Assembly: GCA_030550585.1 (NCBI GenBank)
Contig: JAUQPB010000001.1
Coordinates: forward strand, 192,001 to 256,000
Length of the DNA stretch: 64,000 nt
Direction: 5' to 3'
Source of the DNA: Thermoproteota archaeon
GTDB taxonomy: Archaea; Thermoproteota; Thermoprotei_A; Sulfolobales; Ignisphaeraceae
The stretch's first letter is position 1; the number at the start of each line of letters is the position of its first letter. The notes under the pieces were generated by a model that saw only the letters and a program-made list of their open reading frames with translations, did no database searches and was not told the origin of the DNA. Shown piece after piece: positions 3,637 to 64,000 of the stretch. A program made the position numbers and the translations under genes.

Positions 3637-3749
3637 AATAACACTTCAACTAGCCATCCTTCCCTATGTAGTAAGGGTTCCAACTATCCAATATATATTG
3701 TATAAGGGTTTAAAAATGTAAGTTATACTGAACAAGATATAGCCATTGG

Positions 3750-4625: not shown

Positions 4626-4646
4626 ACCCAGCTTCGTCTAACAACA

Positions 4647-4725: not shown

Positions 4726-4789
4726 TTAGACTAGCCTAACATACTTTTTAAGTTTGTTAGACAAAAACTGTGTTTGGGACCCTAGATAT

Positions 4790-5260: not shown

Positions 5261-5331
5261 GATATTTCAACATGTCAACCATTAGCAACATATCATAAAT
5301 TTTAATATTGGTGTAAATAATTGATTATATT

Positions 5332-5985: not shown

Positions 5986-6076
5986 AGTGGTCTGGAGTTG
6001 AATTATCCAATTAATTTATTGTTAGCATAAATAGTTAAATCTATGGAGTTTTCACTACAACTGTGGTGACACCTAA

Positions 6077-7401: not shown

Positions 7402-7499
<98 letters not shown>

Positions 7500-7790: not shown

Positions 7791-10007
7791 TTATAGTGAA
7801 ATGAATTCGTCTGGGCTTGGAGGCTCTGGCTTCAGACCCTTTCTCTGTCTAATTTTCCTCACAATGTCAAGTAGCATAGAGTCTGGTACAGGTGCCCAGC
7901 GACTGAATTCTGTGCCCCAGAATGCTTTTCCAGCGCTTGCACTTCTAAGCTCGTTTGCTAGATCAGCAGACTCAGCAACTGGTATTTCTGCCAGCATCTT
8001 AACTAGGTTACCCACCATGTGAGTAACATTTATTATTCTGCCTCTCCTCTTCGTTATAACTGATGATATTGGCCCTAGATAGTCCATTGGGAACTTTATT
8101 TCTATTTTCTGAAGAGGCTCTAGTAGAGTTGGTCTCGATGTCAATATTGCTGCGTATATCGGATTCCTAACTGCCGGGTATATTTGTGCGGGTCCTCTGT
8201 GTGCAGGGTCTTCGTGAATTACAGCATCATGTAGAATTACCTTCAATCCTCTTACAGGCTCCATAGCTAAGGGACCTTCTTTCATAGCCAATCTAAATCC
8301 TTGTATAATAGTATCTCTAACCTCTCTGAGGTACTGTATTCCTGATGTCATGTCGATAAACACATCTATGTTTTCATCTATGGCCCATATCCTTCTCGCT
8401 TCATCGTAATCCCAGCCAGCCTGATCCCTCAGTATCCTAGCCCTCTTGTGTGTATCCATATCCTCTGTAATAACACCTTCTTGTATAAGCTTAATAGTCT
8501 CTTCATTTAATGGCTCTATGCTTATGTAAAACCTATTATGCTTGTTTGGAGACTTGCCTTCGAAAACCTTGCTTTTCTCTCTAGCGGTCTCTCTATACAC
8601 TATTGTCGGAGGTGATGTGTCAACATCTAATCCGAACCTTTCTTTGAGAAGTGTCAACACTATTTCAAGGTGTAGATGACCCATACCCGAGATTAGATAT
8701 TCTCCTGTTTCCTCATTTATTTTAACAACGAGATTCGGATCTTCTATACTCATCTTCTTTAGCGCGTCAATTAGCTTTGTTAAATCGCTTGTCTTCTTGG
8801 GCTCAACAGCCATTGTAACAACGGGCTCTGATATATACCTCATCCTCTCGAAAGGTGTCATAACATCCCTCAGCTTTGGATCAACAACAGTTTCACCTGC
8901 CCTTGCTTGATCAAGTCCTAGTATAGCAGCTACATTACCAGCTGGAATTCTGTCTACAACCTCTCTATACGGTCCCATGTATATACCTACTTGCAGAACC
9001 TTTTGAACAATTCTACTATTTATTAGATAAAGCTCTTGGCCATTGTATACAGTGCCTGAAAACACCCTTCCAGTTGCTACAAAGCCTGCATGTGGATCCC
9101 AACGCATGTCACATACAAAGAATACTACAGGGCCGTCAGGATCGGCCGCCATCATAGCCTTTCCAATGTCGGTGTTTATATCTCCTCTCCAAATCTTCGG
9201 TATTCTGTATGCCTGCGCCTCTCTTGGGTTAGGAACAAATTTTACAACCATATCTAGAAGTGCTTCGTGAAGTGGAATCTTCTTTTTGAGCTCCTCTAGC
9301 CCTTCTTTATCTCCCTTTGAGTAAACTTCTATCAAATCATCTATTTTTACACCCTTCTTCTTGCTTAATGGGACTGTTAGACCTATTGCATCTTTTGCGC
9401 TTCCGAATGCTACCATGCCTTGTGCAGGATCTAGAATCCACTTCTTTTTGAATTCAGGCTCTGCATATGTCTCAATTAGATTGTTTACCTCCTTTATGAT
9501 CTCTACAAACCTCTGTTTAATGTCATCCGGCCTCATTCTCAACTCTTTTATCAATCTATCTACCTTGTTGATGAATAGCAGAGGTCTTACCCTCTCCTCT
9601 AATGCTTGTCTAAGAACAGTTTCCGTCTGTGTCATAACCCCCTCTACAGCATCGACAACAACTATTGCTCCATCAATCATTCTAAGGCTTCTAGTTACCT
9701 TTCCAGTGAAATCGACGTGGCCAGGCGTATCAACTAGGTTTATAACGTATGGTCTTCCCTCAAATTCGTGGTACAAACTTATATTAGCTGCTTTGACTGT
9801 CATCTGCCTTTTTTGCTCAATGTCTAAAAAGTCCATTGCAAGGAGTTGACCAGCTAGTCTAGGGGATATTAGCCCAGCAGCAGCTAACAGACTATCTGTT
9901 GTTGTTGTTTTTCCGTGATCTACATGTGCAATTATACCAACATTTCTGATTTGCTCTGGGTTGTTCATTATCTTTAGTATTTGGTCAACGCTTTTCACAA
10001 ATCTCAT
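7791..10007 (-). CDS. fusA: translation elongation factor aEF-2
   Basis: [27 protein letters not shown], diphthamide loop [11 protein letters not shown]. Confidence 0.98.
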
Positions 10008-10120
10008 TTTTATTACCCTACCTTATCCAAGTCTCTATCTATTCCAAGGCTTATTAATTTTTTATATCCTGATACAATTAAGTATAGCTGGCCAGAACCT
10101 ATTAAGCTTTATACCATAGG

Positions 10121-10843
10121 TTAACCGGTCTTACCCTCTGAGAAATAGTCTATGATGGATTTTCCCTGCTCCTTCTTCTGATCCTTAAAACCTTTGTATA
10201 GAGCGTGTATCACCTGATAGATCTCTGCAGCTCTTTTTTCGCTAAGCCCCTCAATCTTCGTTAAATCAGATAGCGATGCTGTGCAGAAGTTGTATATGGA
10301 TCCAAACCTCTCCAGTATTCTCACAGCTGTTTTTGGGCCTACATGCGGAAACGCTTGTAGTATATACAACTGCCATTCTGTTGTATCAGAAGATAGCGAT
10401 TTTTGAGTGGGTTTTTTGATGTTTACCATAGTATTCCTCGATCTTCTCTCCCTCACAGCAACTCTTTTAATTATCTCGGCCGTTTCTTCCTCATCCCTAG
10501 AACTAAGCATTATTATGCCGATGTCAAGAGCTAGTGTTATATATGCGCCGATAATGGCGCTTCTCCTAACATTGGAAAGCCTTGCAGCTTCTTTCAAACT
10601 GCCCTCTATTATCATGATGGCTTTCTCAAACTCGTTTACAAGCCTTGTAGCTTGGTCGAACAGCCTTCCATCAACTAGAGATTTTATGAAATCTGAAGCA
10701 GTTTTTCTCTCTATGCCAATACTGTTGGAAATTACATAGTCGCCAACAGAAAGAAATTTGAATATGACTGTAACGCCTTTGCCAAGCAGAATTTGAGGCA
10801 CTTTCGAATTCTTCTCCCGCTCATCAACATATACCACAACCAT
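10121..10843 (-). CDS. xpf: crenarchaeal XPF (ERCC4) structure-specific endonuclease
   Basis: VDERE, GDY, ERKT..DF..S..DGRLFDQ, tandem HhH, C-terminal PIP box QGKSIIDYF. Confidence 0.93.
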   Translation of the reverse strand: MVVVYVDEREKNSKVPQILLGKGVTVIFKFLSVGDYVISNSIGIERKTASDFIKSLVDGRLFDQATRLVNEFEKAIMIIEGSLKEAARLSNVRRSAIIGAYITLALDIGIIMLSSRDEEETAEIIKRVAVRERRSRNTMVNIKKPTQKSLSSDTTEWQLYILQAFPHVGPKTAVRILERFGSIYNFCTASLSDLTKIEGLSEKRAAEIYQVIHALYKGFKDQKKEQGKSIIDYFSEGKTG

Positions 10844-10854
10844 TTGCAGCCACC

Positions 10855-11955
10855 TCAGCTACGCTCCTCAACAAATTCTAGAACACCTATCTCGCTTACA
10901 CTGTTTAATATCTTGATTAGATTCTCAATCACATGCTTAACGTTAAATGTTCTTAATATAGCACCCCCAGCTACCTTATGGCCTCCCCCACCACCGCCAT
11001 AGACTTCTACCAACTTCTTCAGAATGTTGCTATAAATATCAATGTCTAACGCATTTACAACCTCATCCTTACCCCTGTATACGACCCTCACCGCTTTTAG
11101 ATCCTCATCCTCAGTTAAAACAAATGATATGTCATAGCCTATCGATATCAGACTTGACGCACAATCTGATTCATATGCCCCAACATTAGATATGGCGACA
11201 AAGACTTCGCTACCCTTTATCCTTATCTTGAAGCCTCTATGCCTAAGTACACACTTTATTCTTGCAATTCTATTTGACGGAGGTTTCTCAACAGCTGTAA
11301 GCTTCATAGCCTCCTCATAATCTGCTCCCAGATCCATCATCTTTGCTACAGCATGGAAAGTGTTTCTAGCAACTCTTTGAAACCTCTTTGTATCCCACAA
11401 AACCCCTGCTAGAAGGATCGTAGCCAGCTCATTTAAATTATCAAGTCTCTGATCATGGTTTACAATAATTTCGAAAACTATTTCTGCAGTTGAGCTATAA
11501 TGCTGTTCATCCCCAAAAAACAGTATCCTCTTGTTTTTATCTGAAGCCTGGATATCTCGATATTGATGATGGTCAATAACAATGATGTTGTCACATCTAA
11601 TAACATAGTCTTTGATTATTCTGAGCTGCTCCCATGAAGCTGTATCCACTATTATACAGGTGTCGCACGGCTCCCTACTCTCTAACTGATGATATTTCTT
11701 AATCACATTGATCGGTATATCCATTCCCTGGCAGAATTCGTATATGCGCTTGCATTCAAGCCCTATCCCTTCTGGCACTAGAATTTCCACAAATGCGTTT
11801 CTATTTATGCTATTAACCAGTTTATGTAACGCACATGCAGATGAAAGGGCATCGGGATCGGCATTAACGTGAGTTACTATGACAACTCTCTTTGCATTCT
11901 CTATCATTTTCTTCATAGCATCTAAATCTTGATAAAAATTGTTCTGCTGCATCAA
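10855..11955 (-). CDS. DHH family phosphoesterase
   Basis: THVNADPDA, IIVDT, IDHH, GGGGGGH..AGG. The true start may be ATG 11916. Confidence 0.9.
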   Translation of the reverse strand: MMQQNNFYQDLDAMKKMIENAKRVVIVTHVNADPDALSSACALHKLVNSINRNAFVEILVPEGIGLECKRIYEFCQGMDIPINVIKKYHQLESREPCDTCIIVDTASWEQLRIIKDYVIRCDNIIVIDHHQYRDIQASDKNKRILFFGDEQHYSSTAEIVFEIIVNHDQRLDNLNELATILLAGVLWDTKRFQRVARNTFHAVAKMMDLGADYEEAMKLTAVEKPPSNRIARIKCVLRHRGFKIRIKGSEVFVAISNVGAYESDCASSLISIGYDISFVLTEDEDLKAVRVVYRGKDEVVNALDIDIYSNILKKLVEVYGGGGGGHKVAGGAILRTFNVKHVIENLIKILNSVSEIGVLEFVEERS

Positions 11956-25321: not shown

Positions 25322-25416
<95 letters not shown>

Positions 25417-25624
25417 CTAAACCAATTCTAATACATTAAGTGAGAATGGATTGTAAGGATGATTTTTATGGCCACACATTTAAAAGGCTTTTGATTAATA
25501 ATTTCTGTGTAAGACTGATGTAACTCCGTTTGGCGTATTACTGAGGAGCCTTTGTGGTATTACTGTGGTAATAATTCAAATATTCATTGCATCAATATTT
25601 CTTGTACAAAGAGGTTTGATCGCC

Positions 25625-50796: not shown

Positions 50797-50874
50797 GGGC
50801 CCGTAGCCCAGCCAGGACAGGGCGCCGGCCTCCGGAGCCGGAGGTCCCGGGTTCAAATCCCGGCGGGCCCGCCA
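50797..50874 (+). tRNA. tRNA-Arg(CCG), CCA encoded; probable integration site
   Basis: GGGCCCG TA GCCC AGCCAGGACA GGGC G CCGGC CT CCG GA GCCGG AGGTC CCGGG TTCAAAT CCCGG CGGGCCC G CCA, followed by a T run. Confidence 0.97.
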
Positions 50875-50911: not shown

Positions 50912-50951
50912 CCTAATGTTTCAGTTTCATGGTGCAGGCTGAAACATCAGG
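50912..50951. promoter_or_regulatory. inverted repeat over the integrase promoter/start (putative operator)
   Basis: CCTAATGTTTCAG-14 nt-CTGAAACATCAGG (12/13 complementary), just downstream of TATA-like TTATTAAC at 50901. Confidence 0.5.
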
Positions 50952-52236
50952 CGTGATAGCTTTGAGTGATGGTAGTTCTGAATGGTGGAATAGGATAAAT
51001 GTCTCAAAGATTGATGAAGACTCACGCTACAAGATTCTCTCCTATTTAGTCGAGAAATATGGGAGGAAGAAGGTAATGGAGGAAGCAGGTATTAGCCGTG
51101 TGACGCTGTGGAGATTGCTAAACCGGGTATCCCCGGTAGACCCAGAGTACATAGTCCCACTCCTCAAGCTCCTCACGCAGACAGAGTTTGAGAGTTTAGT
51201 ATCGGCGAAGAACAGACTCAGATCCCTCGGCATAATGAGAGACGATGGAACTGTAGACTACAGTCTGGTCTTGGAAATACTATCCATAGCTAGGAGCGAT
51301 GAATATCTTAAGAACGCTGTACTGAGGTTTGTCGTCCAAGAGTTTAAGGAAGATATTAGGAAAATGCTCGGGATAAGCTTCACAGGTATAAAGCTTGAGT
51401 GGAGTGAAGACTTCGAAAACTTTCTTGTGGAACGTAAGAAGCGTAGAAAGGTGAGAGACCCAGAGACCGTAAAGTACTACAGAAACCTCTTCAAGAGATA
51501 CCTAGAAGGAAAAGAACTCTCCGAAGAACTAATAGACTACATTGTTAGACACCAGAACAAATGGCTTAGGAACGTGTTCAGACACTACGTACAGTACCTA
51601 TACCATAAGAGAAGAATTCCCCCAGAAACCTTCGGCTGGATAATGGAGGTAGTCCCCTCAAGAGGGTATAGACTAGACGTAAGACCCTACCAGATCTCCA
51701 TAGAAGATGTTAGGAAGACCCTAGAGTTCTTGAAGGAGAACCACAAGACATACTACACAGTATACAGAGCAATGCTTGAGTCTGGAGCAAGGTTCGAACA
51801 CGTACTGGAGATGATAAGGACGTGGAACCCTAGAGAAACTGTAGTTATAGAGTCCATAGACCTAGAGGTGGAGAGGTTAGTGTGCTTCGATAGGTTCTGC
51901 AGGTACTACCTAGGTCTCAGAGGTCACCAGAAACCGTGTGAATGGATATACATGTCTAGAGGTACTATAGAGCTCTTGAAAACACTAGCACCCAAAGATA
52001 TTGATAGGAATAGTGTTAGAAGGTATGCCAGGAGGTATAGCCTAACCCTGCCGAAGATGTTTAGGAAAGTCTCATGGAGGATAATGGTTCAGACTATGCC
52101 TAGGGAGGTAGCGAGGTTTATCCAGAGCAGGTTCGGAGAACTAAGGGTAAGTGAGGCGAGGTACGAAGACCTCCTATCAGAGGCAGATGAACACTACCCA
52201 AAATACCTAGAAAAATTGGGAGAAGCTCAATTTTAG
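50929..52236 (+). CDS. int: tyrosine recombinase/integrase with N-terminal HTH
   Basis: HTH (EEAGISRVTLWRLL), then SGAR, KMFRK, FIQSR and terminal RY catalytic pattern. Intact ORF beside a tRNA. Confidence 0.88.
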   Translation: MVQAETSGVIALSDGSSEWWNRINVSKIDEDSRYKILSYLVEKYGRKKVMEEAGISRVTLWRLLNRVSPVDPEYIVPLLKLLTQTEFESLVSAKNRLRSLGIMRDDGTVDYSLVLEILSIARSDEYLKNAVLRFVVQEFKEDIRKMLGISFTGIKLEWSEDFENFLVERKKRRKVRDPETVKYYRNLFKRYLEGKELSEELIDYIVRHQNKWLRNVFRHYVQYLYHKRRIPPETFGWIMEVVPSRGYRLDVRPYQISIEDVRKTLEFLKENHKTYYTVYRAMLESGARFEHVLEMIRTWNPRETVVIESIDLEVERLVCFDRFCRYYLGLRGHQKPCEWIYMSRGTIELLKTLAPKDIDRNSVRRYARRYSLTLPKMFRKVSWRIMVQTMPREVARFIQSRFGELRVSEARYEDLLSEADEHYPKYLEKLGEAQF

Positions 52237-52470: not shown

Positions 52471-53115
52471 TCATAGGTCGCAGATAGACCCCTTCACAAC
52501 CACCAAAAGAAAACTCTTAATCTCTTCCAATCCATTGATGAGGTAAATACTAACACGAGACTTATCCTCCATTTGTAGAGCTAGTAGCGCTGGAAGAATA
52601 TACATGTCCAGAGAAGTAAATACACCATCCCCCTCAAGATATACCAACCCGGCAAGATTACCAGGAAACCACGGAGCAGACCACCGATACACCCCCAAAT
52701 CCACCCTAGTATCCAACTTTCTACCAAACGAGATAAGATCATCCACAGAATACTTCCATAACACACCACCAACCTCCCCCCTAAGATATCCGTACTCCAA
52801 CACGTCCTCAACCCTACCAACCTCCCTCACCCTCCTAACCACAACCTCGGGAATCTTCTGAACCATTATTCTCTTAGGAGAGAGATAATAACAAAAAACC
52901 GGATCGCAACTTGGAAACTGAGGAAGAACCCTAACCCCATCCAAAGAAAGGAATCTGGATGGGACGTACACCACCTCCCAACCATTAAAAACACGATAAA
53001 GAATTACATAGGTAGACAGAAAACCACCATGACCAAAGTACACATACGGAAACCACACCCCCCTGACCTCCCTAACCACCACACCCACCCACACCAACCC
53101 TATATACACCGACAA
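52471..53115 (-). CDS. hypothetical protein (mobile element orphan)
   Basis: 214-aa ORF with coding-like G/T strand bias. No motif recognised. Confidence 0.6.
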   Translation of the reverse strand: MSVYIGLVWVGVVVREVRGVWFPYVYFGHGGFLSTYVILYRVFNGWEVVYVPSRFLSLDGVRVLPQFPSCDPVFCYYLSPKRIMVQKIPEVVVRRVREVGRVEDVLEYGYLRGEVGGVLWKYSVDDLISFGRKLDTRVDLGVYRWSAPWFPGNLAGLVYLEGDGVFTSLDMYILPALLALQMEDKSRVSIYLINGLEEIKSFLLVVVKGSICDL

Positions 53116-53122
53116 CTACTGC

Positions 53123-53479
53123 CATGCCGTTATGAGATCCCCCGACATACTGTTATGAGACCCACATCACCCGCCACATCACCCGCCACGGGGCGGCTCA
53201 TGATTACATTTATTATTATGATCAAATAGTATATGTATAGCACACCGTTATGACACCCACAGTTTTCCCACCATCGATTCTTGATCAGGAAATAATTAAA
53301 ATAGTTGAAAACAGACAATACCATGCCGTTATGAGACCCCTAGATATATATACACAATAACAATATTTAGTGAATACTGACATGCCCTTATGAGACCTAC
53401 TGTCATCCGCTTACGAGACCCTACTGATGAACCATTGCCATGCCGTTATGAGACCTTTTGACATACAGTTATGAGACCC
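53123..53479. repeat. eight degenerate 18-bp direct repeats, consensus CATRCCGTTATGAGACCC (iteron-like)
   Basis: Copies start at 53123, 53146, 53241, 53322, 53381, 53404, 53439 and 53462, with AT-rich gaps. Tandem 12-mer ACATCACCCGCC x2 at 53164-53187. Confidence 0.9.
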
Positions 53480-54294
53480 TAGCGATGAGATACTACACCA
53501 CCCTCCACAACTTCATCCCCGAGAAAACCATACCTCTGATGAGGAACATAGCTATTGAGAGAACTGAACATATCCCTCATCGTGATGAAGGGAATATTGG
53601 AAACAGTAATCACGGTAATCCTCCCATTCCTATCACATCGAACAATAAATCTATCAGATAACTGACTCCAAGGAAAACGGAGAACCCCACTCTTATCGAT
53701 TTCGTAAAGCTTCATCCCGAGCTGATTACCAACAACCTGGAGTATGAGAACCCCACATACACTATAGTTCATGGACTGAAGAATATTTTCAAGAGATCTA
53801 ACTGTAACCCATCCATTCTTTAATGTCTTCAACCTCATCAACAACCTTTCGGGTATTGTTCCATTCTTACCCGTCAACCTTTTAAGATTCTCTACATCGT
53901 AAATATACGATATCTTATCAACATCTTTAGATTTTATAACAACCCTAGTATTCCCTCCACACTTCCTAACTACTATGAATTTCCTCTTTCTCATATCTCT
54001 ATGGAGATACTCTAGCAGATCCCTAGAAACAAGAACATCAATTATCCTGAAACCGCTAAGAACAATACCCGGATACCTATAGTAGACACCTCTCCCAGTC
54101 CTTATCTCCCGTCCAGAACCATACACCTCAAAATACACAAGATTGCGCAATTCTCTACTATAGCTTTCACCTAAATTACTAACAATAACATTACTAGTAC
54201 TAACACTTTTACTAAAACTTAAATTTCCACTACTAACACTAGTAATTCGGTTAGCAGAACTCTTAGCCCAGCCCTTTAACTTCCTCCTCCCCAA
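53479..54294 (-). CDS. basic hypothetical protein (candidate repeat-binding/replication protein)
   Basis: 271-aa Lys/Arg-rich ORF, TTG after GGAG. Its stop abuts the last repeat. Confidence 0.6.
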   Translation of the reverse strand: MGRRKLKGWAKSSANRITSVSSGNLSFSKSVSTSNVIVSNLGESYSRELRNLVYFEVYGSGREIRTGRGVYYRYPGIVLSGFRIIDVLVSRDLLEYLHRDMRKRKFIVVRKCGGNTRVVIKSKDVDKISYIYDVENLKRLTGKNGTIPERLLMRLKTLKNGWVTVRSLENILQSMNYSVCGVLILQVVGNQLGMKLYEIDKSGVLRFPWSQLSDRFIVRCDRNGRITVITVSNIPFITMRDMFSSLNSYVPHQRYGFLGDEVVEGGVVSHR

Positions 54295-54334
54295 CTCCTA
54301 AACCCCTCAGGTAAGAGCTAGGAGTATGAGATGG

Positions 54335-54535
54335 TTAGCCGTGTCTACCCTCAACTACTTGTATGTATATCCTTACCTTCAAGCCTCTGCGCTTTATTTC
54401 CTCCCAAACGGCGTTGAAGTCTCTCGGTAGGTAGATTATCCATCGGTCCCTACCTAGCTTCACTACCTCCCGAGCTGGAACGTATATGTCCCTTGGAAGT
54501 ATATGCAGGCGTGCTTCTTCAGCCATCGACTTCAC
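54335..54535 (-). CDS. small AbrB-like (swapped-hairpin) DNA-binding protein
   Basis: VVKLGRDRWIIYLPRD...KVRIYIQV pattern seen in crenarchaeal plasmid/virus regulators. Confidence 0.55.
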   Translation of the reverse strand: MKSMAEEARLHILPRDIYVPAREVVKLGRDRWIIYLPRDFNAVWEEIKRRGLKVRIYIQVVEGRHG

Positions 54536-54606
54536 CAGTGAATATATACTGTTAATTGATAATATGTATGTGGCTAACAGATCGACGATGACCCGGAGGA
54601 AGAACT

Positions 54607-55410
54607 ATGAGGTTGGCTAACGCTACCAGAAGTCTTATCCAAGTCATGGGGACCTCGGTAGTGGTGAGGAGAAGCAGACTCCGAAGGTACGCGAGGGAAG
54701 TCGGTAGGTCTGACTCCCTCCTTCGCCTAATACTACACAAGCTTGGGAAGAAGGGACTGGTCTACGTGCGCGGAGACCTCGTCGTTAACGTCCCCCTACT
54801 CATACTCCACTACTCTGTGGCACGTTATCTAAATCTCGGGAAAGAGGATGAAGCGGTAGCAGAGGTAGCCAAAAACCTGTTGGAGGTGGGTATAGATGAG
54901 GTAGTAGCAAAAGACCTGGTATTTAAAGTAGTTGTTCAGATGCTTCCTAAGTATAAGCAATTCGTCAATTCCATCTATCGGTACTATGAGTGCTGGCGCG
55001 AAATTGTAGATTCACTTAAAGAGAATGGAGAAATAGACCACGTGGTCAACCTCTTCCTAATATATCTAGGTTTCCTTATTTCTGAGTCGGTCTCTCTAAC
55101 CCGCATAGAGCTCCAAGGTGAAACACTCCTAAATGAAGAGTTCATCGGCACCAGACTCTTCCTACACTCCCTATCAAGGTACGTAAGAAGTAAGCACATT
55201 GAAGAGCTAAGTAAGGCAAAGGAGAAACTAGTTAAGGAAATAGAGAGGCTCAAAACAGATGAAGACAGACACACACGGTTTTACGCAACACTACTCCTCG
55301 AACACACACTCTCAACAGCTATGGACAAGATACTCCCAAAGCTCTACACCCCAATCACACTCATACTCTACAAAAAACAAGAACAACGTACGGGGCAAGA
55401 ACCCCAATGA
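54607..55410 (+). CDS. hypothetical protein with N-terminal wHTH-like region
   Basis: RRYAREVGRSDSLLRLILHKLGKKGLVYVRG. GGAGG upstream of the ATG. Confidence 0.6.
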   Translation: MRLANATRSLIQVMGTSVVVRRSRLRRYAREVGRSDSLLRLILHKLGKKGLVYVRGDLVVNVPLLILHYSVARYLNLGKEDEAVAEVAKNLLEVGIDEVVAKDLVFKVVVQMLPKYKQFVNSIYRYYECWREIVDSLKENGEIDHVVNLFLIYLGFLISESVSLTRIELQGETLLNEEFIGTRLFLHSLSRYVRSKHIEELSKAKEKLVKEIERLKTDEDRHTRFYATLLLEHTLSTAMDKILPKLYTPITLILYKKQEQRTGQEPQ

Positions 55411-55530
55411 TAGGTAGTGCGGTGGTGCCCCGACTCCTGCGGTCTGCGTTTGTTTGGGGATGGGTTCTCGTGATATCAGGGTTGATATGCTCCTGCTTTT
55501 AAACTGTCTCCCTATTATTTAGGTGGGTCT

Positions 55531-56799
55531 ATGTCTACTTCCGTAAGACAGCGTAGTTCGTTTGAGGAGGTAGTTGAGTTTAGTGTTGAGCGTCCAACTG
55601 TCTACGTTAAGCGGGGGTCTGGAGCTAAGGTAGCCGTTAACCTGTTTGGGGCCGGGGTCAAGGTCCTACTATCCTCTAGTTCGGACCCAGGGCTACACAC
55701 CGACATCAGACCTAGCGCTGGTGTCGTACCGCTCACCGCCTTAGTGACCGTACATGCGGGACCTACGGCAGAACTCGGAGTCCGTAGTGTGAGGATCTCA
55801 GCGCTAGATAGAGAGAGGAGGGTAGTGCTAGCTTCGGCCAGTCTCCAAGTGGTCGTGGTTGATGACAAGCTGTTAGACGTTGTTAAGAAAGTCGGTGAGT
55901 ATAGGTTGCTGTACAGAGAGAAAGGGACTCAGTACACTCTACTAAAGGTACTTTGGGACTGGAGAAATACGGTATTCACCTTCGCAGAGATCAAAGCGAT
56001 ATACGAAATGTTGGTGGCGAGAAGTCTATCCAAGGGAACAGTACACGAAGTTCTAAAGAGAATGCTTAGAAAGGGGCTAGTAATTCGCAGACCAGAGGGA
56101 TATGCATTCAATCCAAAGATCACTATGCACGAGGCGTTGAGAGCCATAGACATCAAGAGATCGTTAAACGGGAAGCGAGGAGCGATGAGTAGTCAGCAGA
56201 GGGAAGCCACTAACACAGTTGATGTGGATAGCCCGAAGACCCCTCACGAGGTTAGAGAGCTCATGGAGAGAGCTTCACAACTCGCTAAACAAGACTACTG
56301 GAAGGCTGTCGACCTAATCGCACATACATTGGTAGGGGCTCGGGAAACTGGGATCTGGTTCCTCTGGGTAAACGACCTCTTCATATACCGTGAGGAGAAG
56401 ACAGGGTTCTTCCACTACTTCAAGTCCCGCAGACTCTCGGAATTCCTAAAGGAGTTGGGGTTTGTGGAGGGACTCATGTTCAATCACACAAAACACTCTG
56501 CTAAAGACCTCATCCACGACCTCTATTGGTCGTACCCAAATGCTAGACGACTACACTACCTACTCAAGCAACATGGATGGTTTGAGTACCCAAACGACAT
56601 TCTCCTAATAGAGTTCTACTACGACTCGGGAAAAATCGCGTACATAGCGGTAAGAGAACTCAACAACGACACCGTACTATGGGGTTACGGCAACTCAGAG
56701 CACTCCGAGGAAGTAGAGAGGTTCCCAGTAATACCCGGCGAACACGTAGACAGAGAGAATGAGGAAACATACTTCTACAGACCGGCGGGGATATTCTAA
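55531..56799 (+). CDS. hypothetical protein: beta-rich N-terminal domain, wHTH, unknown C-terminal domain
   Basis: Alternating beta-strand pattern in residues ~12-110. FTFAEIKAIY...SKGTVHEVLKRMLRKGLV wHTH. Confidence 0.7.
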   Translation: MSTSVRQRSSFEEVVEFSVERPTVYVKRGSGAKVAVNLFGAGVKVLLSSSSDPGLHTDIRPSAGVVPLTALVTVHAGPTAELGVRSVRISALDRERRVVLASASLQVVVVDDKLLDVVKKVGEYRLLYREKGTQYTLLKVLWDWRNTVFTFAEIKAIYEMLVARSLSKGTVHEVLKRMLRKGLVIRRPEGYAFNPKITMHEALRAIDIKRSLNGKRGAMSSQQREATNTVDVDSPKTPHEVRELMERASQLAKQDYWKAVDLIAHTLVGARETGIWFLWVNDLFIYREEKTGFFHYFKSRRLSEFLKELGFVEGLMFNHTKHSAKDLIHDLYWSYPNARRLHYLLKQHGWFEYPNDILLIEFYYDSGKIAYIAVRELNNDTVLWGYGNSEHSEEVERFPVIPGEHVDRENEETYFYRPAGIF

Positions 56800-56910: not shown

Positions 56911-56930
56911 TTTATATTCTCTTAGAGAAT
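56911..56930 (+). promoter_or_regulatory. TATA box followed by palindromic operator candidate
   Basis: TTTATA at 56911 directly followed by ATTCTC-TTA-GAGAAT (56916-56930), upstream of the AbrB gene. Confidence 0.5.
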
Positions 56931-56954
56931 TCTGTAGTAGGTGCTATAGAGCTT

Positions 56955-57116
56955 ATGCCCGTTATGGCTCGCACCAGGATTGGTAGGTATTATAGGACGA
57001 CTATTCCCAGGGAGGTCCGCAAGCTACTGGAACTAAGGGAGAACGACGAGGTCGAGTGGGTCTTTGAGAACGGAGTAGTCTACGTTAGAAAAGCAGGGGG
57101 TGAACAACATGGTTAG
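56955..57116 (+). CDS. AbrB/MazE/SpoVT family DNA-binding protein (53 aa, below ORF-track cutoff)
   Basis: Own translation: MPVMARTRIGRYYRTTIPREVRKLLELRENDEVEWVFENGVVYVRKAGGEQHG. Confidence 0.85.
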   Translation: MPVMARTRIGRYYRTTIPREVRKLLELRENDEVEWVFENGVVYVRKAGGEQHG

Positions 57117-57312
57117 ATGTCCGTTCTGCGGATTTGAATCGAGCCTGGAGGATTTCAAGAAGCTAAGAGAACCCTGGAGATTCAGGTTCTACGAGGTTAA
57201 AATGCTGGAGTGTCCTAAGTGTAAAGGTGTGTTCAACTACTACGAGGGTTTTTCACCAAGAGGTAAGCGTTCCTCGTTCATGATTAAAATGAGACCGCGG
57301 GCTAGAGCATGA
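57109..57312 (+). CDS. small C4 Zn-finger protein
   Basis: CPFC...CPKC. Overlaps the AbrB stop and the methyltransferase start (ATGA). Confidence 0.78.
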   Translation: MVRCPFCGFESSLEDFKKLREPWRFRFYEVKMLECPKCKGVFNYYEGFSPRGKRSSFMIKMRPRARA

Positions 57313-60300
57313 GTAGTAGAATTCCTGTGCCTCAAATAGATATAGATGATGTAGTGAACTGCTTTAAGCAGAGTGTTAGAACAGCTAGAAATGAGGAGGA
57401 GGTTAGAGCAAGGGTTTCAGTAAGGTGCATTGAGGAGAAGATACTGAAGCCCCTGGGTATAACCCAGTACGGTCACTACGAATACACCCTTGTCTCGGGT
57501 GCTAGGGTAGACGCGCTGTACGGTCACGTGATAGTTGAGTACAAGGCTCCCGGTAAGCTCTCATCAGCATCCGACATAGCTAAAGCTAAGGAGCAAGTAA
57601 TTAGATACATCACTAAGGAGGCACCCAGTAAAGCTGAGTGGGATAGGTACCTGGGAGTCATAATAAGCGATAGAATAGCCTTCGTGAGGTACTATAAGCC
57701 CCAGGATACATGGATACTCAGAGGACCCTACGAGATCACCAGGGAAAGCGTTGTTAAGCTCATAGAGGCAATCAGAGGACTAAGGAGAAAAGCTCTCAAA
57801 GTAGACCCCCTACTCACCGACTTCGGTCCTCAGTCAGTAATAGCTAGAAGAGCCGTGAACACTCTCTATAGGAAGTTGCTGAACAGTAAAAACCCTAGAG
57901 CCAGGATGCTCTTCGAGGACTGGATGAGGCTCTTCAAGCAAGCAACTGGTTACGACCCCGAGAAACTCAAAGAGCTTCGTCAACTAGCCTCGGAGTACGG
58001 CATAGTAGGTAGTGTTAATTGCGATGCTCTGATATTCGCTATTCAAACGTACTACGCCTTCATAATGAAGCTACTAGCTGCAGAAGTCGTTTACCTATAC
58101 GGTGGTGGCAGGTTCTACAAATCCTACATCGCTGAGCTAGACGACAAGTACACAAGCGGTGGAGTTGAAGCCCTAAGGGGTGCCCTAGCAGAGCTCGAGA
58201 GCGGAGGTATCTTCAAGACCTTCGGTTACGAGAACTTCCTTGAGGGAGACTACTTCTCCTGGTACCTCGGTGAGCTGGATAAGGAGCTAGCCGACGTACT
58301 AGCTGAGATCGTCAGGAGGCTAGAAGACTACGAGCCTGCAACACCACAGCTGGAACCAGAGTACGCTAGAGACCTGCTGAAGAGGCTTTACCAAAACATT
58401 GTTCCCAGAGACATAAGACACAAGCTGGGAGAGTACTACACACCAGACTGGCTGGCGGACTTCCTCCTAGACGAGGCGGGACTCACACTCGAAAACCTGG
58501 AGAAAATGGGAGCTGAAGACCCGCTAAAACCATTTCAGATAAGGGTTCTCGACCCAGCCTGCGGGTCGGGGACCTTCCTCGTGAGGTACATTGCGAGGCT
58601 TAGAGCTTACGCTAGAGAGCACTACCTTGAGGATGTTCTCGTAGACTACTTGCTAAGCAACGTCGTAGGATACGACTTAAACCCTATAGCCGTGCTAACA
58701 GCTAGAACCAACTACTTGCTCATGATAGCTGACTTACCCAAGAGAGGGACAATAGAAATACCTGTGTACTTAGCCGACTCCCTCATGGTTGAGAGGAAGA
58801 CAACGCTCACCGGAAACGTCTACGTGCTCAAAACTGTTGTCGGAGAGTTCCAAGTACCCGTGAGGATCGTGGATAGTGGACTCCTACCGAGGATCCTATC
58901 GGAGGTAACCAGTACGCTGAAGAACAGGTACACACCCGATGACTTCAAGAATAGGATTAAGTACGTCTTCAAGGACATATCGAACAGCGAGCTAGAGGTA
59001 TTAACAGGGTTCTACGCTACCCTGCTAAAGCTCGAGGTAGAGGGGAAGAACGATGTCTGGGTTTCCATAATAAGAAACGCCTTCGCACCAATGCTCAAAG
59101 GCAAGTTCGACTACGTGGTGGGCAACCCACCGTGGGTGAACTGGGAAAACCTACCAGAAGAGTACAGAAAGATTAGCAAACTACTATGGTCTCAGTATGG
59201 GTTAATGGAGGCAAGAGGTAGAGGTTTAGGGAAGGTTAAAAGAGACTTAGCAATGCTGTTCCTAGCTAGGTGCTTTGACCTATACCTGAAGTCCGGTGGA
59301 AAACACGCTTTTCTAATGCCGTTCACAGTGTTCAAAACCCAAGCTGGTGCGGGATTCAGAAGGTTCCTAGCGACCAAAACAAGAGTGCATGTTGTACACG
59401 ACATGGTGTTAACAAAACCGTTTGAGGGAGCAGTGAACAGAACTTCAGCCATAGTTGTCGAAAAGATCTGCGAGCTAAAGGACATCAGCAATACAAAGAA
59501 ATGCCCTGACACGGTTAAACTGGTGGAGGAGAACAAGAAGATAAGGCACGTGGTATGGGTTAGCGAAAAACCCGTTCCAACCGATACGCCACTAGAAGAG
59601 GTCCTGAAAACCGTTGAGAGGTACAGAGCAGTAATGACGCCGTTAATGGAGAGAGATCCTTCGAGTCCCTGGATGCAGGTAACGGAAAGAGTGCTACCGC
59701 ACGTCAGGAAGCTAGTTGGCGAATCACAATACGAAGCACATGAGGGTGTGAATACGGCGTTAAACCAGGTTTACTTTGTAGAAATCAAGGAGAGACTACC
59801 CGATGGAAAGCTAGTGATAACGAATCCGCCAGAAGCTGGTCAAAAGAAGAGAATTAAGCAAGTAGAAGCCGTAGTTGAGCCAGACTACGTTTACCCGCTG
59901 ATCAGGGGACGGGATATAAAGAGGTGGTACGTGGACTTCAGGGACAGATACATCATTGTACCTCACGACCCAAAGACTGGAAAACCTCTACAGGAGCTGG
60001 TAGTAAAGACAGAATATCCACATACATACCAGTACTTCTCGATTTTCAGCAAGGAGCTAATGAACAGATCTATTCACAAGTTATGGGGCAAAGGAAACCC
60101 GTTCTACGCGGTATACGATATAGGTTCATACACTTTCGCTCCATACAAGGTCGTCTGGAAAGAAGTGTCGTCAAGGATGGGAGCTGGAGGATTCCATGTA
60201 GCGGTCATAGGGACTCTTAGTGGTAAATACCTGGGGGAAAAAGTAGTAGTGCCGGATCACACGGTTGTATTGGTACCGTTGAACGACGAGAAGGAGGCAC

Positions 60301-60974
60301 ACTACCTTAGTGCCATATTGAACTCCAGCATAGTAGCATTTGTTGGAACCTACATGCCTGTTAAGGGCTTAGAGAACCTGGCTATTCCCAAGTTCAACCC
60401 GAATAATCCTGTTCATGGAGAGCTCTACCAGCTCTCCATGAGAGCTCACAAGCTTGCCATGTGCGTTTACGCCGAAGTTGATCCTGATTATTGCGGAGAG
60501 TTCAGGAACCCGAAGGAGGAACTTGCACAAGTTGAGGAGCAGATAGATAGATTAGTTGCAGAGCTCTATGGTATGCCCGAGGACGCGCTACAGGACATCA
60601 GGAGGCTGTTAGCTATCTTAAAGGCTGAGGAGGCTCCAGAGGGAGATGAAGTAGAGGAAGAAGCATTGGAACCATCCATAGAGTTTCTCAAGACTGATGT
60701 AGCTGCTGGTCAAAGAGACTACGTAGAGTTCAACGTTGTAACTGTGGAGGAGTGTGATAAGGCGAGGATTACTCTGCAAGGCCCATGGGGCGTCAAAGAT
60801 CTCAGCTTAGGTGAGGGTAGACATAAACTAGAAGTAGTCCTTCCCGAGGGTGTCTACGAGGTTAAGTACACGTTTATCTGCGGAGAGCACAGTTACGAGG
60901 GCTCATTCAAGGTTACATCCTCTAAGTCTCTACCAACAGGTCCTAAGAGGCCTAGCACGCTGAAGCTCGGGTAG
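57309..60974 (+). CDS. Type IIG-like fused restriction endonuclease / N6-adenine DNA methyltransferase with extra C-terminal domain
   Basis: N-terminal PD-(D/E)XK (EE...RVDAL...IVEYK), GEYYTP, motif I VLDPACGSGTF, motif IV GNPPW, TaqI-like TRD region, then an acidic linker and a ~100-aa beta-rich tail. Confidence 0.9.
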   Translation: MSSRIPVPQIDIDDVVNCFKQSVRTARNEEEVRARVSVRCIEEKILKPLGITQYGHYEYTLVSGARVDALYGHVIVEYKAPGKLSSASDIAKAKEQVIRYITKEAPSKAEWDRYLGVIISDRIAFVRYYKPQDTWILRGPYEITRESVVKLIEAIRGLRRKALKVDPLLTDFGPQSVIARRAVNTLYRKLLNSKNPRARMLFEDWMRLFKQATGYDPEKLKELRQLASEYGIVGSVNCDALIFAIQTYYAFIMKLLAAEVVYLYGGGRFYKSYIAELDDKYTSGGVEALRGALAELESGGIFKTFGYENFLEGDYFSWYLGELDKELADVLAEIVRRLEDYEPATPQLEPEYARDLLKRLYQNIVPRDIRHKLGEYYTPDWLADFLLDEAGLTLENLEKMGAEDPLKPFQIRVLDPACGSGTFLVRYIARLRAYAREHYLEDVLVDYLLSNVVGYDLNPIAVLTARTNYLLMIADLPKRGTIEIPVYLADSLMVERKTTLTGNVYVLKTVVGEFQVPVRIVDSGLLPRILSEVTSTLKNRYTPDDFKNRIKYVFKDISNSELEVLTGFYATLLKLEVEGKNDVWVSIIRNAFAPMLKGKFDYVVGNPPWVNWENLPEEYRKISKLLWSQYGLMEARGRGLGKVKRDLAMLFLARCFDLYLKSGGKHAFLMPFTVFKTQAGAGFRRFLATKTRVHVVHDMVLTKPFEGAVNRTSAIVVEKICELKDISNTKKCPDTVKLVEENKKIRHVVWVSEKPVPTDTPLEEVLKTVERYRAVMTPLMERDPSSPWMQVTERVLPHVRKLVGESQYEAHEGVNTALNQVYFVEIKERLPDGKLVITNPPEAGQKKRIKQVEAVVEPDYVYPLIRGRDIKRWYVDFRDRYIIVPHDPKTGKPLQELVVKTEYPHTYQYFSIFSKELMNRSIHKLWGKGNPFYAVYDIGSYTFAPYKVVWKEVSSRMGAGGFHVAVIGTLSGKYLGEKVVVPDHTVVLVPLNDEKEAHYLSAILNSSIVAFVGTYMPVKGLENLAIPKFNPNNPVHGELYQLSMRAHKLAMCVYAEVDPDYCGEFRNPKEELAQVEEQIDRLVAELYGMPEDALQDIRRLLAILKAEEAPEGDEVEEEALEPSIEFLKTDVAAGQRDYVEFNVVTVEECDKARITLQGPWGVKDLSLGEGRHKLEVVLPEGVYEVKYTFICGEHSYEGSFKVTSSKSLPTGPKRPSTLKLG

Positions 60975-60978
60975 CCTT

Positions 60979-62412
60979 ATGAGCGACTTGTTCGCGAAGA
61001 TTAGGAGGGTTTTCGCGGAATACGCGGTCGACAAGAGCCTGCTTCAGGTAGCTGAAGTATCTAAGTTGCCCGGCTTCGTAGCAGAATACTTGATGACTGA
61101 GTTCTCCCAGATGTACCCAAGCGACTGGCAGGAGAGGCTGAGGGAGTTCATACGCCAGCACTACTTCGAGGCTAGCGAGAAGGAGTACGTAAAGCACCTA
61201 CTCGTCGAGAGGAGGAGGGTCTCACTAATCGATGAACTAGTGGTATGGGTAGACCTAGAGTCAGGTGAGCACAAGGGCATACTCCAGTCTATAGGGGAGC
61301 GTGACGTTAGGGTTCCAGCTGAGATAGCTAGGAGCTACCCAATGACCATGATCACGGGTATGTGGGGGCTGGTAGAGCTGGAGTACTCACCTGAGACTGC
61401 TAAGAGAGATTTAAACGGTAACTTGCTCGAGAACCCTGTAGTTGTTACGGATTTTAAACCTTTTCAAGCACCTGTCAGAGACCCTAAGTTACTTAGAGAC
61501 GCTAGGAGTTTCTTCACCTTTGATGAGTGGTTAGACGTGTTGATAAACACTATTGGTTACAACCATAATGTCTACCGAGATACGAGGAGGAAGCTGGTGC
61601 TGTTGTCCAGGCTCCTACCAATAGTCGAGGAGAACCTCCACCTAGCTGAGTTCGGTCCTAAGGCTACGGGTAAGACCTACGTTTTCAGGAACGTGAGTAG
61701 GTACTCCAGGATTATAGTCGGGGGCACGATATCTCCAGCAGCACTATTCTACAACCTTAGGACGGGTATGCCTGGTGAGCTTGCTGTGAGAGACTGTGTG
61801 GTGTTCGACGAGATATCTAAGGTCAGGTTTCCGAACCCGGACGAAGTCGTCGCTAAACTGAAGGACTTCATGGAGAGTAGTCAGTATGAGAGGGGGAAGC
61901 AGAGAGTAACCTCCGGTGCTTCAATAGTCATGCTAGGCAACGTCGAAGTCGAGGAGAGGGAGGGGACCTACATACCGGTAGAGGACCTAACTTACCTACT
62001 GCCCAAGCCCATGAGGGACTCAGCGTTGATCGACAGAATTAGTGGTGTTATACCTGGGTGGGAGCTGCCGAAGATAGGGCGGGCAAGGTACCATCTATCA
62101 CAGGGATACGGTATCGCGTTAGACTACTTCTCCGAGGTGCTACATGAGCTAAGGAAGGAGAGCCTCTTAGGTGAGGTAGGCAAGCACGTAGAGCTCTTCG
62201 GCAACGTGACGATTAGGGACGAGAGGGCCGTGAAGAAGATTGTAAGCGCCTTCACGAAGCTCCTCTTCCCAGACCTAGAGTTCGATAAGAGAGAGCTACA
62301 AGTAGTAGTCCAATACGCAGTAGAGCTGAGGCAGAGAGTTAGAGACTGGCTACACAAGCTATCACCGGGGGAGTTCCCTAGGGAAGCACTCTCCTTTAAG
62401 CTACGTGGATAA
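60979..62412 (+). CDS. brxL: BrxL-family AAA+ ATPase lacking the C-terminal Lon protease domain
   Basis: R..FT.DEW.D.L...IGY, L.RLLP.VE.N....E.GPKATGKT, A.LFYN, FDEI, LKDFMES, D.A..DRI...PGWE.PK, G...DY.SE, RD.RAV.K......KLLFP. The protein ends at 477 aa. Confidence 0.9.
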   Translation: MSDLFAKIRRVFAEYAVDKSLLQVAEVSKLPGFVAEYLMTEFSQMYPSDWQERLREFIRQHYFEASEKEYVKHLLVERRRVSLIDELVVWVDLESGEHKGILQSIGERDVRVPAEIARSYPMTMITGMWGLVELEYSPETAKRDLNGNLLENPVVVTDFKPFQAPVRDPKLLRDARSFFTFDEWLDVLINTIGYNHNVYRDTRRKLVLLSRLLPIVEENLHLAEFGPKATGKTYVFRNVSRYSRIIVGGTISPAALFYNLRTGMPGELAVRDCVVFDEISKVRFPNPDEVVAKLKDFMESSQYERGKQRVTSGASIVMLGNVEVEEREGTYIPVEDLTYLLPKPMRDSALIDRISGVIPGWELPKIGRARYHLSQGYGIALDYFSEVLHELRKESLLGEVGKHVELFGNVTIRDERAVKKIVSAFTKLLFPDLEFDKRELQVVVQYAVELRQRVRDWLHKLSPGEFPREALSFKLRG

Positions 62413-63345: not shown

Positions 63346-64000
63346 ATGAGGAGAAATTCGGTTTTAGTCTTAGTTCTGCTGACCTTAGCCTTAGGCCTAA
63401 TGGTTTCCTCCGGATCAGCTCAGCTTAGGCGATCAACGCAACTGAGTCTCACGCCAGAAAACTTCACAGCTACTTCAGGCGGTAGCCTCACGTTTACAGC
63501 CACCCTGCTTTCAGATGGTAAACCCTTAGCTGGAAAAACCATTATCTTCTCGGCTACTCTCGGAACAGTTGATCCGCCTATGGGTGTGACAGATGCCAAC
63601 GGCAAAGTTTCGTTTGTCTACACGGCTCCGCAAACACCAGTTAGGATCTATGTGAAGATCACAGCCACCTTTGCCGGTGATTTGCTATACGAAGGCAGTA
63701 GTGCGGTCGCCTCAGGAGTCGTTGAGCCTGTGCCTTCGCCAATTCTTCCGTCGATATCCCTTGTAGGAGCCTCATTCACCATTCCTGAGACGCTAAAGGA
63801 TGATGTATCCTTGTATAGGAACTCCATTCCAAGCGATATCATGAAGACGCTGCCAACTGGTTTGCCATCAGAGGCCTTCCTGCTGGCAACTAATGAAAGC
63901 CTCTACTTGGTTTTTGCTGAGCAAAGTGATAAGGGCTTAGCCAAAGTGGAGGGTTGGCTTTTGCCGACGCACATTCAGCTTGCAGGTTTAAACATAGCTG
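63346..64000 (+). CDS. secreted/surface protein with Ig-like (Big-1/invasin-type) domain, 3'-truncated
   Basis: Own translation: MRRNSVLVLVLLTLALGLMVSSGSA signal peptide, then LTFTATL..DGKPLAGKTIIFS...G.TDANGKVSFVYTAP...ITATFAGD. Confidence 0.8.
   Translation, partial: MRRNSVLVLVLLTLALGLMVSSGSAQLRRSTQLSLTPENFTATSGGSLTFTATLLSDGKPLAGKTIIFSATLGTVDPPMGVTDANGKVSFVYTAPQTPVRIYVKITATFAGDLLYEGSSAVASGVVEPVPSPILPSISLVGASFTIPETLKDDVSLYRNSIPSDIMKTLPTGLPSEAFLLATNESLYLVFAEQSDKGLAKVEGWLLPTHIQLAGLNIA

Follow-up and report, generated by a model that had tools for sequence, protein, structure and literature searches.

What does a BrxL ATPase do when it is encoded directly behind a Type IIG restriction enzyme, away from the core genes of a bacteriophage exclusion (BREX) system? 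This question is raised by a compact locus in the genome of a hot-spring Thermoproteota archaeon (assembly GCA_030550585.1; 1.76 Mb in 7 contigs, 99.92% complete). The stretch analyzed here, referred to as the window, comprises 64,000 nucleotides (nt) of contig JAUQPB010000001.1 (C4:192001-256000), and the locus near its right end encodes, in order, a small AbrB-type protein, a zinc (Zn) ribbon protein, a Type IIG nuclease-methyltransferase (hereafter IIG) and a short BrxL. An earlier note, made from the sequence alone, had described four co-oriented genes with two short overlaps and one short gap, and the open reading frame (ORF) calls agree, with all four genes on the plus strand (Table 1). 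We consider it fairly likely that IIG and BrxL form a physically coupled, ATP-assisted Type IIG restriction module, whereas any single mode of action is given a much lower probability; the coupling itself we infer from comparative analysis and structural modeling.

The BrxL of this locus represents the short form of the family. Its match to TIGR02688 reached 500.6 bits (cut-off 329.3), with BrxL_N (PF20442) at 90.3 bits and BrxL_ATPase (PF13337) at 379.2 bits, whereas its match to the long-form model TIGR02653 of type 1 BREX (287.9 bits) fell below the cut-off of 628.25 bits. Both profiles and alignment to a solved structure bore out the earlier claim that a Lon domain is absent: the protein stops at residue 477, and its alignment covers residues 15-463 of the 679 residues of the solved Acinetobacter BrxL (8emc), stopping ahead of the Lon-like domain. 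This absence is nevertheless not unusual, as the Lon-less short BrxL is the normal form used by type 4 BREX (sections of PMC12839542). For instance, the type 4 BREX locus of Thermomicrobium roseum encodes a 3'-phosphoadenosine-5'-phosphosulfate (PAPS) reductase, a DUF4007 protein, a 1401-amino-acid (aa) protein, PglZ, a 482-aa BrxL and a cysteine desulfurase. According to sections of PMC10164562, BrxL is an ATP-dependent ring that binds double-stranded DNA (dsDNA) and has minichromosome maintenance (MCM) helicases as its closest structural relatives; its C-terminal domain, which is not part of the present short form, links two rings tail to tail (also sections of PMC12707154). Parts of PMC10164562 and PMC12839542 describe BrxL as restricted to BREX types 1 and 4, and a 2025 review lists its role among future questions (sections of PMC12707154).

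Profile searches of the kind proposed in the earlier note found neither pglZ nor brxC in the element that carries the locus, just past the window or elsewhere in the genome. No genome match was obtained for PglZ (PF08665), for BrxC/DUF499 (PF04465) or for BrxB (PF08747), the search control for the last being positive. BrxA (PF08849) likewise had no genome match, but its search control also gave no match anywhere; the earlier statement that the flanks lack BREX genes accordingly stands genome-wide for PglZ, DUF499 and BrxB, and for BrxA it carries the limit of a mute control. Around 11 orthologous loci, the 10 of 17 large flanking ORFs that were scanned contained no PglZ or DUF499. In an even sample of 401 genomes from one archaeal phylum, all PF08665 matches were at most 35 bits, covered part of the profile, fell on frames of about 230-550 aa, and lay nowhere near an IIG-BrxL cassette; in the four cassette-bearing genomes with such a match, it was more than 100 kb off or on another contig. 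To judge from these matches, the proteins probably belong to other alkaline-phosphatase-fold families rather than to PglZ. Because PglZ, BrxC and BrxB were not found, we do not regard the locus as a BREX system, and a decayed BREX locus was set aside on the same whole-genome result.

The enzyme upstream of BrxL matched the PADLOC model REase_MTase_IIG (PDLC03630) at 1228 bits, with protein residues 16-1105 covering profile positions 12-1099 of 1100. Pfam matches to Eco57I (61.3 bits) and N6_Mtase (31.9 bits) were also obtained, TaqI_C remained under its cut-off (17.5 against 26.5 bits), and PglX profiles matched only weakly, the equivalog models giving at most 50 bits against cut-offs of at least 400. 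The earlier note had assigned the methyltransferase its own PD-(D/E)XK nuclease, an assignment now strengthened by both conservation and fold: D68 is invariant, and E77 and K79 are retained in 14 of 14 BrxL-linked genome orthologues. In addition, an AlphaFold2 model of residues 1-340 (predicted local distance difference test, pLDDT, 84.9) was closest in VIA-align to DrdV (7lo5; Z 9.6, root-mean-square deviation (rmsd) 10.4, 233 residues aligned), with BpuSI (3s1s) at Z 9.1 (rmsd 4.1, 137 aligned) and other restriction nuclease domains ranking lower. A Foldseek search of the PDB with this N-terminal model returned nothing at E <= 0.001, the best match again being DrdV (E 0.026). By sequence and fold tests alike, IIG is a single-chain MmeI/DrdV-like nuclease-methyltransferase with its recognition region in the same chain; its activity is predicted.

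Within this recognition region, columns ~1020-1100 of the IIG alignment A2 (residues ~920-1010; window ~60070-60340) occur in two alternative forms among orthologues, one of which has a 15-column insert (GEPYKSKLEPYRKLP in L038). Near-identical relatives differ in the form they carry (G206 versus G080; G067 versus G181), a pattern that suggests cassette-like exchange of specificity segments. An EYEK variant of the nuclease motif, found in one metagenome sub-clade, was considered as an inactivation and set aside, the lysine still being adjacent.

The pairing of IIG with BrxL is recurrent. TIGR02688 matched in 36 of the 401 genomes, 25 of which lie above the cut-off and encode a full short BrxL in frames of ~440-510 aa. 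An IIG orthologue (47-71% identical) was located directly 5' on the same strand in 14 of these 25, or in 17 of all 36 with fragments included. A search of genome contigs with the BrxL protein alone yielded 3 close loci. Three genomes of the same genus contained neither BrxL nor IIG, and the distribution of the cassette is sporadic, as expected of mobile DNA. For metagenomes, the best 80 of 545 IIG relatives from an alignment scan were taken, near-duplicates included; 11 loci could not be assessed, 10 with IIG frames that leave the contig and 1 with too little downstream sequence. Among the remaining 69 loci, 42 carried both BrxL and a C-terminal extension of IIG, termed the tail, 27 carried neither, and none was discordant. 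The earlier question of whether the pair recurs without pglZ was thereby answered in the affirmative, in genomes and metagenomes alike. The two genes were separated by 30 nt or less in 39 of the 42 metagenome loci (the others by 54, 372 and 1323 nt). The flanks of the genome loci varied and included genes for a HerA-like ATPase, a UvrD-type helicase, GmrSD and a STAND NTPase, as well as PurL, pyruvate oxidoreductase and topoisomerase VI B. The conserved unit is the tailed IIG plus BrxL, with AbrB and the Zn ribbon optional.

The tail lies past the end of the PADLOC IIG profile and makes each of the 14 genome IIGs linked to BrxL ~115-140 aa longer. G003, the only full orthologue that lacks BrxL, has no tail, and VYE replaces EYK in its nuclease motif. 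More distant homologues on bacterial plasmids (~29% identity, ~1050 aa) likewise lacked the extension, with no ATPase neighbor in 3 of 3 inspected. At one metagenome locus (L118), a tail-less IIG is directly followed by a C-terminal remnant of BrxL, which looks like the product of a deletion that removed tail and BrxL together. The D-E-K residues were retained in 24 of the 25 tail-less metagenome loci with a readable nuclease motif; as the tail-less, BrxL-less enzymes keep this motif, BrxL appears to be an addition that the enzyme family can do without.

Phylogenetic trees of both proteins were constructed with FastTree, with midpoint rooting and Shimodaira-Hasegawa (SH)-like support. The IIG tree, built with the tail removed, contained 71 rows after 5 partial rows and 2 exact duplicates were dropped; on it the tail label requires 15 changes, at least 14 of which are forced by well-supported branches. 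These changes are read as repeated joint loss of tail and BrxL, on a midpoint root and with some near-copy rows. The BrxL tree comprised 66 rows, including L081, which has an internal stop, and 3 of the 4 BrxL relatives found on viral contigs (31-37% identity). In this tree, 50 IIG-linked BrxLs formed one clade, with one unplaced row nested inside at weak support. The sister group consisted of BrxLs with other partners, followed further out by type 4 BREX BrxLs and then by the long type 1 proteins. Furthermore, sub-clades of the IIG-linked BrxLs were matched in the IIG tree, as expected of co-diversification.

The tail also provides a candidate physical link. Its AlphaFold2 model comprises a sandwich with pLDDT above 90 and a generic FN3/CARDB/immunoglobulin (Ig)-like fold; kinship with the C-terminal region of PglX was considered, and PglX entries were not among the matches listed in the fold search. 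BrxL (alignment A1) was then modeled together with IIG residues 1095-1221 (alignment A2) from custom unpaired alignments, alongside three controls. The interaction prediction score from aligned errors (ipSAE) was 0.84, 0.82 and 0.82 (median 0.82), against 0.00 for all three controls; at least 66% of contacts were common to the runs, and partner pLDDT was at least 78. Of 80 solved complexes, 58 reach the mark applied to this score, as do 2 of 110 mismatched pairs; these counts hold only roughly for custom alignments. On the tail, the predicted interface involves residues 1119-1130 (the first sandwich strand), 1142-1146, 1187-1201 and 1209-1220 (the end peptide), and on BrxL it involves residues 2-15 and 37-45 and patches at 160-171, 195-198 and 368-383. 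A sequence search of solved structures matched BrxL alone and no IIG-BrxL complex, so the docking model is unlikely to reproduce a solved complex. The tail thus appears, in these models, to dock on the N-terminal part of BrxL. Together with the absent BREX core, the recurrence of the pair and the BrxL-specific tail, the separation between 0.82 and 0.00 favors the minimal two-component restriction-modification (R-M)/BREX hybrid envisaged in the earlier note.

These observations bear directly on whether the two proteins work together at all. BrxL could instead be a helicase that replicates or maintains a mobile element, or what is left of a BREX locus after decay, and only travel alongside an ordinary IIG gene. 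MCM-like ATPases are found on archaeal mobile elements, the window copy lies within an integrated element, and short BrxLs also occur in unrelated contexts. However, gene order and tight spacing are preserved across variable flanks, housekeeping neighbors included, BrxL varies in perfect concert with the IIG tail and co-diversifies with IIG, and binding is predicted by modeling. Co-travel without a joint function is therefore regarded as very improbable.

In the coupled module that we favor, IIG would recognize its site, methylate host DNA and contribute the N-terminal nuclease, while a BrxL ring, seated on dsDNA and driven by ATP, would tether one or several IIG molecules through the flexible acidic linker and tail. 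By assembling these enzymes or moving them along DNA, BrxL may license or strengthen the cleavage of unmodified foreign DNA, as the McrBC AAA+ (ATPases associated with diverse cellular activities) ring or the Type ISP and Type III motors serve their nucleases; a part for ATP hydrolysis in the pair is presumed. A more specific form of this module, conceivable but held only tentatively, is an ATP-dependent restriction system in trans, in which the tail-docked ring would move along DNA or gather enzymes and thereby give long-range communication between sites. If so, a PglX/MmeI-like one-strand mark might spare newly replicated host DNA yet destroy invaders, a suggestion to which we attach similarly guarded credence. 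Such a system, if real, would represent a minimal BREX logic in which the methyltransferase directly recruits BrxL through a C-terminal docking region.

The same predicted docking fits recruitment as well as activation. IIG at unmethylated sites might recruit the MCM-like BrxL via the tail to block replication of the invader, with cleavage a separate or secondary layer. BrxL would then be a non-nucleolytic effector, the role proposed for it in BREX. In Acinetobacter BREX, restriction is lost only in BrxL ATPase-site mutants, as described in sections of PMC10164562, and the tail-less IIGs retain the nuclease motif, so cleavage would not need BrxL. Nevertheless, the motif is also kept in every one of the BrxL-linked genome orthologues, suggesting that cleavage persists in the presence of BrxL; the genome has no origin-binding or origin recognition complex (ORC)-like partner (BrxC, BrxB); and BrxL is dispensable in some BREX systems according to parts of PMC12839542 and PMC12707154. 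We consider a replication block unlikely.

The repeated joint loss of tail and BrxL bears on yet another role, in which BrxL would be an ATP-dependent remodeler that removes or restrains IIG on DNA, either preventing self-cleavage at sites left unmethylated after replication or recycling a single-turnover enzyme. Type IIL enzymes methylate only one strand and turn over poorly, and a tether with a flexible acidic linker, combined with a conserved ATPase site, would suit a remodeler. Yet losing BrxL while keeping the nuclease motif would be hazardous if BrxL were self-protective, and such losses appear to have occurred repeatedly. A safety or turnover function is accordingly judged improbable, more so than a replication block.

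Several points weigh against the coupled, ATP-assisted module. IIG evidently persists without BrxL, as the tail-less loci with intact D-E-K residues indicate, and tail-less, BrxL-less orthologues are interspersed across the IIG tree. In genomes the survey spans a single archaeal phylum, and in metagenomes the 80 best matches with their near-duplicates; its trees are midpoint-rooted FastTree reconstructions. Several cassettes are decaying (IIG broken in G011 and G224; BrxL split in G208). The score of the modeled complex expresses the model's own confidence and derives from custom unpaired alignments. Transcript support is weak: 20 of 22 listed runs, from 9 studies, contain parts of this stretch, and contigs of one metatranscriptome library (X18), 90-99% alike, span all 30 bins, one of 257 nt crossing the Zn-ribbon/IIG junction. 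As these contigs derive from relatives and a single library, do not reveal whether the genes share one transcript, and may stem from DNA present in an RNA library, they amount to at most a hint of expression.

Compared with known systems, the locus combines familiar parts. Like the Type IIG/IIL enzymes MmeI, DrdV and BpuSI, IIG joins in one chain a PD-(D/E)XK nuclease, through a helical connector, to a gamma-class N6-adenine methyltransferase followed by a recognition region at the C-terminus, but it differs in its extra ~115-aa tail and the downstream BrxL ATPase. To our knowledge, the established Type IIG/IIL members work without an ATPase partner; the presence of BrxL suggests ATP involvement, which would be a departure from the Type IIG norm. 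With BREX, the locus shares a BrxL-family ATPase of the type 4 short form and a methyltransferase within the broad Eco57I/MmeI-like group that includes PglX. Unlike BREX, it has no detected PglZ, BrxC/DUF499 or BrxB, its BrxL falls in the IIG-linked clade apart from type 4 and type 1 BrxLs, and its methyltransferase keeps a nuclease domain, whereas PglX, likened to MmeI, is described in parts of PMC11341690 as having none.

Two further comparisons concern only how the systems work. McrBC couples a ring-shaped AAA+ NTPase to a PD-(D/E)XK nuclease through protein contact, and its structure 6hz4 was among the nuclease-fold matches of the IIG N-terminal model (Z 5.9). McrBC uses GTP, attacks modified DNA and has no methyltransferase, whereas methylation should protect in the IIG-BrxL pair. 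Type ISP (LlaGI, LlaBIII) and Type III R-M systems mark asymmetric sites and combine nuclease, methyltransferase and ATP-driven communication along DNA, and the helical region of IIG (residues 163-340) resembles LlaBIII (4xqk, Z 5.6). Their motor is a fused or partnered superfamily 2 (SF2) helicase-like ATPase, in contrast to the separate MCM-like AAA+ ring of BrxL here.

Full-text literature searches, whose coverage did not extend to article supplements such as Supplementary Data S1-S3 of PMC12839542, found no paper on the IIG-BrxL pairing. The BREX survey of PMC12839542 was, according to the sections seen in the article text, anchored on BrxC and DUF499, and the pair may have been overlooked for this reason. 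The parts and the logic are familiar; what is new, on the comparative and modeling evidence, would be the architecture that holds them, an undescribed one that recurs and has a docking domain of its own. BrxL recurring outside BREX with one nuclease-methyltransferase partner and a predicted docking domain offers a simple two-protein model for BrxL function, in which direct assays can address its partner, its need for ATP and how it affects cleavage, with the tail-less, BrxL-less orthologues as natural controls. The Type IIG enzymes would also gain a branch that is coupled to an ATPase. Automated defense annotation would probably not keep such a module together, listing an ordinary R-M gene and, separately, an orphan brxL.

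Table 1 Positions in the window of the locus features and of the left end of the integrated element
Feature	Position	Strand	Basis and remarks
tRNA-Arg (CCG)	50797-50874	+	ARAGORN; left attachment site of the element
Integrase of the element	50929-52236	+	PF16795 archaeal phage integrase, 95 bits
TATA-like box TTTATATT	56911-56918	+	Read from sequence; 37-44 nt 5' of the AbrB start
Palindrome ATTCTCT-T-AGAGAAT	56916-56930	.	Repeat search; 7-nt arms, 100% complementary, 1-nt spacer; overlaps the TATA-like box
AbrB	56955-57116	+	ORF call; 53 aa
Zn ribbon	57109-57312	+	ATG start; 67 aa; 8-nt overlap with AbrB
IIG nuclease-methyltransferase	57309-60974	+	1221 aa; overlaps Zn ribbon by 4 nt
PD-(D/E)XK nuclease motif D68...E77-x-K79	57507-57545	+	Alignment A2
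Methyltransferase motif I DPACGSGTF (residues 415-423)	58551-58577	+	Invariant in A2
Methyltransferase motif IV NPPW (residues 606-609)	59124-59135	+	Invariant in A2
IIG C-terminal tail (residues ~1106-1221)	60624-60971	+	Acidic linker, 8-strand Ig-like sandwich, end peptide GPKRPSTLKLG
Short BrxL	60979-62412	+	477 aa; 4-nt gap after IIG
Walker A GPKATGKT	61654-61677	+	G226, P227, T230, G231, K232 invariant in 14 sequences
Walker B VVFDE	61798-61812	+	D277, E278 invariant in 14 sequences; aligns with Walker B of 8emc

Upstream of the operon, the single TATA box and the palindrome reported in the earlier note are both present, with a putative regulatory role: the TATA-like box presumably acts as the promoter and the palindrome as a candidate operator. 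In the G080 orthologue, inspection by eye likewise revealed a TATA box 5' of the AbrB gene, with a palindrome of different sequence behind it. The AbrB protein matched PF04014 at 39.2 bits (cut-off 24.7) and TIGR01439 at 31 bits, and this small DNA-binding protein of the AbrB/SpoVT type is likely the operon regulator. An AbrB gene occupies the equivalent position in 4 of 18 genome loci, Pfam-confirmed for the window and G080 copies. The Zn ribbon contains two CxxC pairs and a basic C-terminus, with all Zn-ribbon profile matches sub-threshold, and it lies 5' of IIG in 8 of the 18 genome loci and in 14 of 59 assessable metagenome loci, tail-less IIGs included. We propose that the Zn ribbon is an optional part associated with IIG and that, together with AbrB, it serves as an optional regulator. 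One Zn-ribbon orthologue (L042 6051-6272) matched the Mu Com zinc ribbon at 20.2 bits, below the cut-off of 22.9. Com is a translational activator of a DNA-modification gene; a Com-like translational role for the Zn ribbon is a lead from this sole sub-threshold match in an orthologue.

Short BrxLs were also observed in other contexts. In two archaeal genomes without a PglZ match, G034 (L047 3872-12897) and G070 (L048 8606-17727), a conserved operon encodes a DUF1156-type methyltransferase (989-1002 aa), a protein of 1087-1100 aa that matches nothing in Pfam or PADLOC, a short BrxL and proteins of 272-278 and 172-190 aa. This operon may be related to the DUF499-centered BREX-related systems described in sections of PMC12839542. 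On a Thermus oshimai plasmid (NC_019387.1; L067, 5628-20750), a short BrxL has genes for vWA and tubulin-like proteins, together with hypothetical genes, to one side and, to the other, those for a 3'-5' exonuclease and a RecQ-family helicase of 1716 aa. In both settings BrxL again has a DNA-modification or DNA-processing partner and no PglZ match, but the partners are not the same, and the tree places these BrxLs outside the clade linked to IIG. The short BrxL therefore looks like a module serving several DNA-directed systems. In six genomes of one genus (L054-L059; e.g., L054 8780-11636), it is preceded by a rapidly evolving protein of 240-293 aa that belongs to no known family, and no methyltransferase adjoins the pair. 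At L054, the single locus that was scanned, a gene for a QueT transporter is located immediately 5'.

The window cassette resides in a tRNA-integrated element, as the earlier note had recognized: a tRNA-Arg gene, an adjoining integrase, a rise in guanine-plus-cytosine (GC) content from ~0.39 to 0.47-0.50 and a distal copy of the tRNA 3' end were all found. The distal copy, a partial one of ~41 nt that contains a 29-nt exact repeat of the tRNA-Arg 3' end, lies at window-equivalent positions 67949-67990, ~4 kb past the window, where GC drops again and no tRNA was called; with this fall, it sets the size of the element at ~17 kb. Between the integrase and the operon (52471-56799), most ORFs belong to no known family. 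They include a 422-aa protein with weak MarR/Penicillinase_R winged-helix matches and ORFs of 267, 271 and 214 aa without a family above cut-off, the last with a sub-threshold Imm_superinfect match. The last gene of the element, just before the right attachment site (window 63346-64000 onward, to L004 9198), encodes a 1283-aa protein with Ig-like and CarboxypepD_reg domains and, by eye, an apparent N-terminal hydrophobic signal-like stretch. Past the window, the element contains only the remainder of this gene, and ABC-transporter genes lie beyond it.

A diverged second copy of the Zn ribbon-IIG-BrxL cassette, found via PF13337, is located on contig C6 of the same genome in equal gene order, with a 1219-aa IIG and a BrxL ORF of 474 aa (470 aa with the start chosen for the alignments). 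Identity to the window copy is 67% for the Zn ribbon, 65% for IIG and 57% for BrxL, while the tails share 28%. As the two copies fall into different sub-clades of both trees, they look separately acquired rather than recently duplicated. The C6 cassette sits in a defense-like island (L003, G000:C6:140000-159999; 1928-7237 +, 8096-11166 -): just 3' of its BrxL are an ORF of 290 aa and a 729-aa protein whose prokaryotic Argonaute (pAgo)/PIWI matches are weak (~31 bits), and on the opposite side are a 1018-aa DEAD helicase with BrxHI, SngC and DrmA matches and a 746-aa PLD-domain protein (weak DrmC).

Among the decaying copies, BrxL of G208 (L064 7807-17425) is split by a ~5.4 kb insertion and the IIG tail is frameshifted; G011 (L039 6299-9968) has a stop and a frame break in IIG with BrxL intact; and the IIG of G224 (L053 2384-5682) is fragmented. 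Two genomes carry additional genes beside the cassette (L039 4255-5652 and 13377-15608; L040 5497-7728 and 15432-16829), namely a 466-aa Eco57I-type methyltransferase with TaqI_C and a DEAD helicase of 744 aa that contains an MrfA Zn-binding domain. Elsewhere in the window, tRNA-Lys (7404-7498) and tRNA-Pro (25322-25417) were called at 95-96 nt, above the usual length, and probably contain introns, which are common in this phylum.

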